A model generated the notes under the pieces. The model saw only the letters and a program-made list of their open reading frames with translations. It was not told where the DNA came from and ran no database searches. A stretch of 64,000 nucleotides of DNA from Escherichia coli (GTDB taxonomy: Bacteria; Pseudomonadota; Gammaproteobacteria; Enterobacterales; Enterobacteriaceae): NCBI RefSeq assembly GCF_003334405.1, contig NZ_QOWM01000016.1, one strand, 5' to 3'. Numbering within the stretch: the first letter of the stretch is position 1; the number at the start of each line of letters is the position of its first letter. Shown one piece after another: positions 29,893 through 33,640 of this stretch. A program made the position numbers and the translations under genes.

Positions 29893-30169
29893 TTTCAGAA
29901 ATTTAATAATGCCCGGTACTCATGTTTTCGGGTTTATGGTTTCTAATGAAATATATTGAATTATCATAGGATTAGGCCGGATTAAGCGTTTACGACGAAT
30001 CCGGCAAGAAGCAATAAGTACATGGTTAGTTTATATTTGCAGTCCGGTTTGCTTTGCATACCGGATTTTCTTTTTCTTACCATCCTGAAGTTTTTTCATC
30101 TTCCCTGATTTTTCCTCACCATCATTGGTCATTTTTCGGTTGACGCCCTTCGGCTTTTCCTTCATCTTT

Positions 30170-30197
30170 ACATCTGGACGTCTAAACGGATAGATGT
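30170..30197. promoter_or_regulatory. met boxes (MetJ operator) upstream of metF
   Basis: acatctggacgtctaaacggatagatgt about 45-70 bp upstream of the metF ATG. Confidence 0.8.
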
Positions 30198-30237
30198 GCA
30201 CAACACAACATATAACTACAAGCGATTGATGAGGTAA

Positions 30238-31131
<894 letters not shown>

Positions 31132-31405
31132 ATAGTGTGGCTTTTGTGAAAATCACACAGTGATCACAAATTTTAAACAGAGCACAAAATGCTGCCTCGA
31201 AATGAGGGCGGGAAAATAAGGTTATCAGCCTTGTTTTCTCCCTCATTACTTGAAGGATATGAAGCTAAAACCCTTTTTTATAAAGCATTTGTCCGAATTC
31301 GGACATAATCAAAAAAGCTTAATTAAGATCAATTTGATCTACATCTCTTTAACCAACAATATGTAAGATCTCAACTATCGCATCCGTGGATTAATTCAAT
31401 TATAA

Positions 31406-33640
<2,235 letters not shown>

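Follow-up and report, generated by a model that had tools for sequence, protein, structure and literature searches.

The intergenic region between metF and katG in this Escherichia coli contig is best read as a composite of independent features, each of an ordinary kind: a spacer found only in Escherichia, a stem-loop in the metF 3′ UTR, a palindrome inside a published YgaV footprint and a conserved control block for katG. We give this reading a probability of about 0.55. The window (the whole stretch of DNA that was analyzed, 64,000 nucleotides) is E. coli K-12 DNA and contains ORFs that match MG1655 metL, metF, katG and yijE, and a window coordinate is converted to the MG1655 coordinate by adding 4,102,375. 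The ORF that matches MG1655 metF lies at 31131 and upstream (30241–31131) and the ORF that matches MG1655 katG starts at 31460, which leaves an intergenic region of 328 nt (31132–31459) that is 100% identical to the same DNA of K-12 strains, e.g., MC4100. The interpretation offered by the original prediction is partly supported. It held that none of the features it listed in this region was accounted for by the gene annotations; this is right in that RefSeq has no annotation between metF and katG, but footprints of OxyR and YgaV have been published for the same DNA (PMC9774250).

Sequence reads and exact-match positions show that the palindromes, the hairpin and the GATC sites listed in the original prediction are all present, at most 1 nt from where it had placed them, and the palindrome cluster exceeds chance, as judged by dinucleotide shuffles and by the rank of the region among 328-nt windows. 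When arms of 5 nt or longer separated by no more than 4 nt are counted, the 328 nt hold nine inverted repeats, against 2.1 ± 1.7 expected (2000 dinucleotide shuffles, P = 0.002), and the summed arm length gives P = 0.001 in the same 2000 shuffles. Short inverted repeats are about four times commoner in the intergenic region than in the shuffles (P of about 0.001–0.006). The palindrome density of the metF–katG region lies in the top 0.1–0.3% of all 328-nt windows in the 64 kb, and no other stretch of this length there is denser in palindromes. The strongest palindrome had been missed, a perfect 16-mer, TGTCCGAATTCGGACA, at 31290–31305, and a second one, TTAATTAA at 31319–31326, was also absent from the earlier list. 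GATC occurs at 31162, 31327, 31336, and 31367; three GATC within 44 nt are seen 12 times in the 64-kb window against 4.3 expected by random placement, and the GATC cluster by itself is not exceptional. The cluster is not one device; it is several unrelated ordinary features, and dense intergenic palindromes need not be equated with one regulatory device.

The left part of the region, 31132–31325 on the + strand (about 195 bp), is the Escherichia-specific spacer and metF 3′-UTR region, recognized by synteny and lineage restriction. For comparison, 80 metF loci of other species were retrieved and 78 non-Escherichia loci were scored. The metF–katG spacer has a length of 328–340 nt in E. coli and E. 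albertii and of about 144–168 nt in the nearest Salmonella, Citrobacter, Leclercia, and Enterobacter relatives in which katG follows metF. In Salmonella, Citrobacter, and Enterobacter the spacer opens, just after metF, with a compact terminator, GCCCTC-loop-GAGGGC followed by a T-run. By one strict criterion, a perfect stem plus T-run no more than 90 nt past the metF stop codon, such a terminator was counted in 51 of the 78 non-Escherichia loci vs. none of 14 Escherichia sequences. Similarity to other genera resumes only at GATCAATTTGATCTACATCTC, from window position 31327 onward. Since the spacer is longer and homology restarts only at 31327, the segment 31132–31325 is Escherichia-specific and stands at the place of the ancestral terminator; the GCCCTC...GAGGGC terminator is presumably the ancestral state of the metF 3′ side. 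As judged from these loci, the comparison shows that a fast-evolving unique segment took the place of the compact metF terminator in the Escherichia lineage.

The segment 31132–31325 is present as a single copy in all 5426 complete E. coli genomes searched (blastn word size 11) and is never deleted. It has no relatives in plasmids, where the only matches are mislabelled chromosomes, or in phages, where no match was found, and it shows no similarity to the 78 non-Escherichia loci and no second copy in the rest of the window. A repeat of the REP/BIME, ERIC, RSA or MITE type was considered and rejected, as there is one copy per genome and no dispersed copies were seen in the 5426 genomes. A mobile-element origin likewise has no support: the putative terminal inverted repeats at 31140–49 and 31309–18 have no covariation and no target-site duplication. 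When the same arms are taken as a long-range closing helix they look compensated by eye in B2 strains, and formal counting gave no support.

In the sampled alignment, for which alleles were picked to maximize diversity, 20% of the columns are variable in the hairpin and 35% in the stretch after it, and in 31326–31459 only one column of 134 varies among nine E. coli, with six differences to E. albertii. Across the 5426 genomes, 31326–31387 is at least 95% identical to K-12 in every one, the hairpin allele is of only 80–90% identity in about 10%, and the segment with the YgaV palindrome (31264–31325) falls below 95% identity in 22%. A genus can swap a canonical terminator for an unrelated, fast-evolving, hairpin-rich sequence while the neighboring promoter block stays frozen.

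The spacer contains a long imperfect stem-loop at 31195–31256 (+ strand), with 27 pairs including four G-U pairs and without a U-tract. In its core, 31201–31247, AATGAGGG (31201–31208) pairs with CCCTCATT (31240–31247); the original prediction had given the core as the whole hairpin, which exists but is longer than was thought. As RNA the stem-loop 31195–31256 folds with a dG of −28 to −29 kcal/mol (z = −4.7), none of 200 shuffles folds as well, and its minus strand is weaker, at about −20 kcal/mol. The long hairpin is kept in 12 out of 12 E. coli alleles read, with −20 to −30 kcal/mol, and among them the mRNA-sense + strand is always the more stable one because of the G-U pairs. A lack of structural conservation had been named in the original prediction as a result that would refute it, and this is largely what was seen, with no covariation and with a different hairpin in E. 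albertii. There the pyrimidine arm, which is homologous to the 3′ arm in E. coli, has another partner that lies downstream. The E. albertii hairpin is centered on CCTTGAAGG and its minus strand is the more stable.

Only one of the 27 pairs has a double, compensatory change, a count that is matched by 217 of 500 shuffles, and the RNAalifold covariation term for the hairpin is +0.57, which indicates no covariation. Divergent alleles are no stabler than a K-12 hairpin randomly mutated with the same number of changes (P = 0.12–0.44), so that no selection on hairpin stability was detected in this comparison. An Rfam scan of 30000–32000 with permissive E-values gave only chance-level matches (mir-14, U12), none near the gathering score. 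The candidate of a conserved structured RNA element was dropped on these grounds: no covariation, no Rfam match and a rearrangement in E. albertii. As far as the alleles tell, the hairpin pattern fits repeated inverted duplication within a poorly constrained spacer.

In the original prediction the long hairpin was said to look like an unusually long terminator, and it was weighed here as the Rho-independent terminator of metF. The hairpin is indeed the first strong structure past the metF stop codon, and with the ancestral terminator gone in Escherichia something else must end metF transcripts. However, the tail (ACUUGAAGG; ACUUGAAGGAUAUG) has no U-tract, the stem end at 31247 (31256 for the full stem) being followed by ACTTGAAGGATATG and not by a U-run, and the nearest T-run after the stem, 31275–31280, begins 19 nt past it. 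A terminator scan of 30900–31700 found no + strand site. Without a U-tract, the stem-loop does not qualify as an intrinsic terminator. Nor is an intergenic 3′ end (MG1655 4133500–4133799) listed in the complete curated Term-seq table published by Adams et al. (2021, Supplementary file 1; LB and minimal medium), and the Rho table of the same work has no region there; both negatives are weak, because no 3′ end of metF or of katG is named in these tables. Taken together, we find it quite improbable that the hairpin terminates metF in this way.

Adams et al. (2021) do report Rho termination regions at MG1655 4132762 (+, internal to metF; window 30387) and 4132920 (−, antisense; window 30545), as well as a Term-seq 3′ end at MG1655 4132448, 168 nt upstream of metF. 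The latter is consistent with the hairpin and T-run of the metBL terminator, which lie near window 30040–30075. Past the hairpin, a C-rich and G-poor stretch (C/G of 1.9–3.2) at about 31280–31420 could be a Rho loading site.

In bacterial mRNAs, protective 3′-terminal stem-loops are hairpins stable enough to stop PNPase and RNase II, and they are found at the processed 3′ ends left after Rho termination; the class includes the REP stabilizers and, reportedly, the 3′ ends that Dar and Sorek described in 2018. The metF hairpin resembles them in its −28 kcal/mol without a U-tract, in its location in the 3′ UTR just past the stop codon and in being stabler on the mRNA-sense strand in E. coli. It differs from them in that it is a single copy and not REP/BIME, has no 3′ end in the table of Adams et al. 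(2021) and shows no selection signal. Compared with the metF terminator of Salmonella, Citrobacter, and Enterobacter, the Escherichia hairpin has the same position relative to the stop codon, but it is about three times longer, of unrelated sequence and without a T-run.

The mechanism that we propose is that the spacer is transcribed as the metF 3′ UTR, where its stable stem-loop (31195–31256) would block 3′-to-5′ exonucleases. Transcripts of metF that terminate beyond the stem-loop would in this way have their 3′ end protected or defined, and read-through toward katG may be slowed as well. We infer the protective role because stable 3′ stem-loops are known to hinder 3′ exonucleases. By this analogy the stem-loop is probably a metF 3′-UTR exonuclease barrier, and it may be a neutral quasi-palindrome. 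Its probable origin is an inverted duplication or a quasi-palindrome mutation, and selection on it may be weak or absent.

Near the left end of the spacer, at 31145–31167, three short inverted repeats overlap one another (TGTGA-aaa-TCACA, ATCAC-aca-GTGAT, and GTGATCAC), with TGTGAAAATCACA located at 31145–31157 and GTGATCAC at 31160–31167. They fold weakly as RNA (dG −8, z −2.2) and each is broken in some lineage, e.g., GTGTTCAC in B2 strains, TGTAA in GmM066 and E. albertii, and GCGATCAC, again in E. albertii. It had been remarked that TGTGA and TCACA resemble the halves of a CRP site with the wrong spacing, and this was confirmed: the spacing is N3 and not the N6 of the symmetric 22-bp CRP site, and no TGTGA-N6-TCACA with two or fewer mismatches is found on either strand of 31132–31459. 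A search for a regulator motif that fits the repeats at 31145–31167 found none. The stretch 31132–31194 has roughly 81% identity to E. albertii, which in our judgement would need no special constraint.

The perfect 16-bp palindrome TGTCCGAATTCGGACA (31290–31305) lies at the center of the low-affinity YgaV footprint. This DNase footprint was mapped at −113 to −157 from the katG transcription start (PMC9774250), which in the window, with the start at 31435, is about 31278–31323, and its authors found no recognizable ATTC-N8-GAAT motif in it. The palindrome and the published footprint are thus in the same DNA, with the perfect TGTCCGAATTCGGACA at the footprint center, yet many lineages of E. coli have a degraded form of it, e.g., TCTGCCGAAATCAGACA in B2 strains.

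The katG control block has at its left edge the palindrome AGATCAA-T-TTGATCT (AGATCAATTTGATCT), with GATC at 31327 and 31336. The original prediction let it start at 31325; the palindrome exists and its true span is 31326–31340. Position 31326 is A in K-12 and its close relatives and C in every other E. coli sampled and in E. albertii. This A lengthens the palindrome to 15 bp and creates TTAATTAA, and therefore the 15-bp form is specific to K-12, whereas what is conserved is a 13-bp core, GATCAATTTGATC. The core is invariant in all Escherichia read, GATCAnnTTGATCTACATC is found in 11 of 15 Citrobacter loci with unrelated DNA to its left, and the right-hand GATC is found in all Salmonella, Citrobacter, and Pseudocitrobacter loci. 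From 31326 on, Escherichia shares a block with Citrobacter and Salmonella; the GATC palindrome comes first in it, then the OxyR site and then the two katG starts. The GATC pair lies at about −109 to −96 from the start at 31435, and the GATC-N5-GATC palindrome falls between the YgaV and OxyR footprints, inside neither. In a reading that we consider unlikely, it could be a methylation- or SeqA-sensitive site, or the site of a further regulator. The conserved GATC pair upstream of the OxyR site is a small candidate for additional control of a textbook promoter.

The katG OxyR site occupies 31360–31404 (+ strand), which is the window equivalent of the published footprint at −32 to −76 (PMC9774250), with its motif at 31364–31400; the OxyR-activated katG promoter was described by Tartaglia, Storz and Ames (1989), as cited in PMC9774250. 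When scored against an idealized consensus of four ATAG-type elements (ATAGnTnnnAnCTAT-N7-ATAGnTnnnAnCTAT) overlapping the −35 region, 31364–31400 is the best match of the intergenic region, with 14 of 20 specified positions (six mismatches), and the third best in the window. The katG transcription start sites are at 31413 and 31435 (+ strand; SMRT-Cappable-seq, MG1655 4133788 and 4133810), and the −10 hexamer TATCGT at 31424–31429 serves the second. In the same data both katG transcripts end at MG1655 4136061, and among the units listed only katG units are found. The motif at 31364–31400, the published footprint and the start at 31435 mark the promoter as OxyR-regulated.

The second-best OxyR-consensus match of the window (5 of 20 mismatches) is at 30190–30226, just upstream of the metF start codon; it lies in the metF promoter/5′ UTR beside AGACGTCT-like MetJ boxes and is probably due to chance. 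The best match, at 56057–56093 with four mismatches, falls in the oxyS–oxyR divergent promoter region (MG1655 4158432), and the window therefore contains katG as well as the gene of its regulator.

The original prediction spoke of three Dam sites near the OxyR site. The one at 31367 is indeed in the footprint and motif, where GATC 31367–31370 falls within the distal ATAGnT element, but those at 31327 and 31336 are about 100 nt upstream of the transcription start and belong to the separate palindrome. An agn43-type Dam/OxyR layout was considered and set aside, as it needs several GATC in the OxyR site and here there is only 31367.

Several other explanations have to be weighed against the composite reading. 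One option is that katG is controlled through its GATC sites by a Dam/OxyR epigenetic switch of the agn43, gtr, or opvAB type, with methylation and OxyR binding mutually blocking. As in agn43 and in Salmonella gtr and opvAB, katG has a GATC inside an OxyR contact element (31367, in the distal ATAGnT element), and a conserved GATC pair lies about 30 bp upstream. Unlike those systems, the katG site has one GATC, the other two being outside the footprint, and OxyR acts here as the activator of an inducible stress gene; katG is OxyR-activated and uniformly inducible and is not known to be phase-variable. An in-site GATC also arises easily by chance, since only two free motif positions need to be A and C (an estimated 1 in 4 OxyR sites), it is missing at the same position in Salmonella and most Citrobacter, and GATC triplets of such density are common in the window. 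No undermethylation at katG is reported in the literature searched. We hold a switch to be very improbable.

It is possible, and we hold it as a tentative alternative, that the hairpin and the palindromes are functionless neutral by-products, i.e., relics of an old insertion or of an inverted-duplication or quasi-palindrome template-switch mutation. Polymorphism in the region is highest in the hairpin and in the sequence that follows it, neither the hairpin nor the putative long-range closing helix shows covariation, divergent alleles are about as stable as random mutation would leave them, single palindromes are disrupted in one lineage or another, and a pyrimidine tract with a different partner arm, as in E. 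albertii, is expected from repeated inverted duplications. Neutrality fits less well with the finding that all E. coli alleles read have a long hairpin of about −20 kcal/mol or stronger, with the absence of any deletion of the segment in 5426 genomes, with a + (mRNA) strand that is always stabler within E. coli and with a palindrome density above that of shuffles. That the segment encodes a separate product, either a 3′-UTR-derived small RNA ending at the hairpin or a 39-aa ORF at 31189–31308, has hardly any likelihood in our estimate, even with a stable hairpin, an ATG-started ORF and a sense-oriented sigma-54 site inside metF, about 200 nt upstream. No Rfam family comes near its gathering score, a promoter scan of 30900–31700 found no sigma-70-like promoter, the hairpin does not have the U-tail typical of Hfq-binding small RNAs, and the ORF has a frameshift in L004, is cut short in L091 and has no ATG in E. 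albertii. In addition, Bonocora et al. found no transcriptional effect attributable to the intragenic sigma-54 site.

The sigma-54 promoter-like sequence, TTGGCGCGAATATTGCC, is located at window 30995–31011 (+), in sense orientation inside the metF 3′ end. It has been reported as ChIP-seq IS48 and as a genomic SELEX RpoN site near metF/katG, and it is inside metF, not intergenic; a transcript from it would cross the spacer hairpin. The small ORFs 31189–31308 and 31250–31366 were also examined as genes and rejected, as they are not conserved.

The composite reading can be set beside one further proposal, which we consider unlikely: that Escherichia, having lost the intrinsic terminator of metF, lets metF transcription read through the spacer into katG, coupling catalase to the MetJ (methionine) regulon, with the hairpin tuning the surviving transcript. 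Methionine limitation strongly derepresses metF. Deletion of metJ in Salmonella raises katG strongly (table value 5.10), together with metK and metH; this rise is compatible with entry from derepressed metF, and an indirect stress effect is equally possible. Salmonella still carries the metF terminator despite this rise, and the coupling could be stronger in E. coli, which is without it. If it is true that metF transcription runs into katG, there would be an unrecognized link between methionine starvation and peroxide defense in E. coli. The significance of the region under the composite reading is modest; it is a feature of an ordinary kind.

The metF–katG spacer is also enlarged by other sequences. 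In E. coli ETEC4090 (L003 4188–5105) an IS1 is inserted at the equivalent of window 31318/31319, giving a spacer of 1105 nt; it sits between the YgaV-footprint palindrome and the GATC palindrome and leaves the conserved katG control block untouched. In Kluyvera (L021, L029, and L055) and in L069 the spacer is likewise enlarged, to 341–1699 nt, by unrelated sequence, and that of Kluyvera ascorbata (L021) contains REP/BIME-like GCCGGATAGCG...CCGGCCTAC repeats. With enlarged, unrelated spacers in several genera, the position just past metF seems to be one where insertions readily occur independently.
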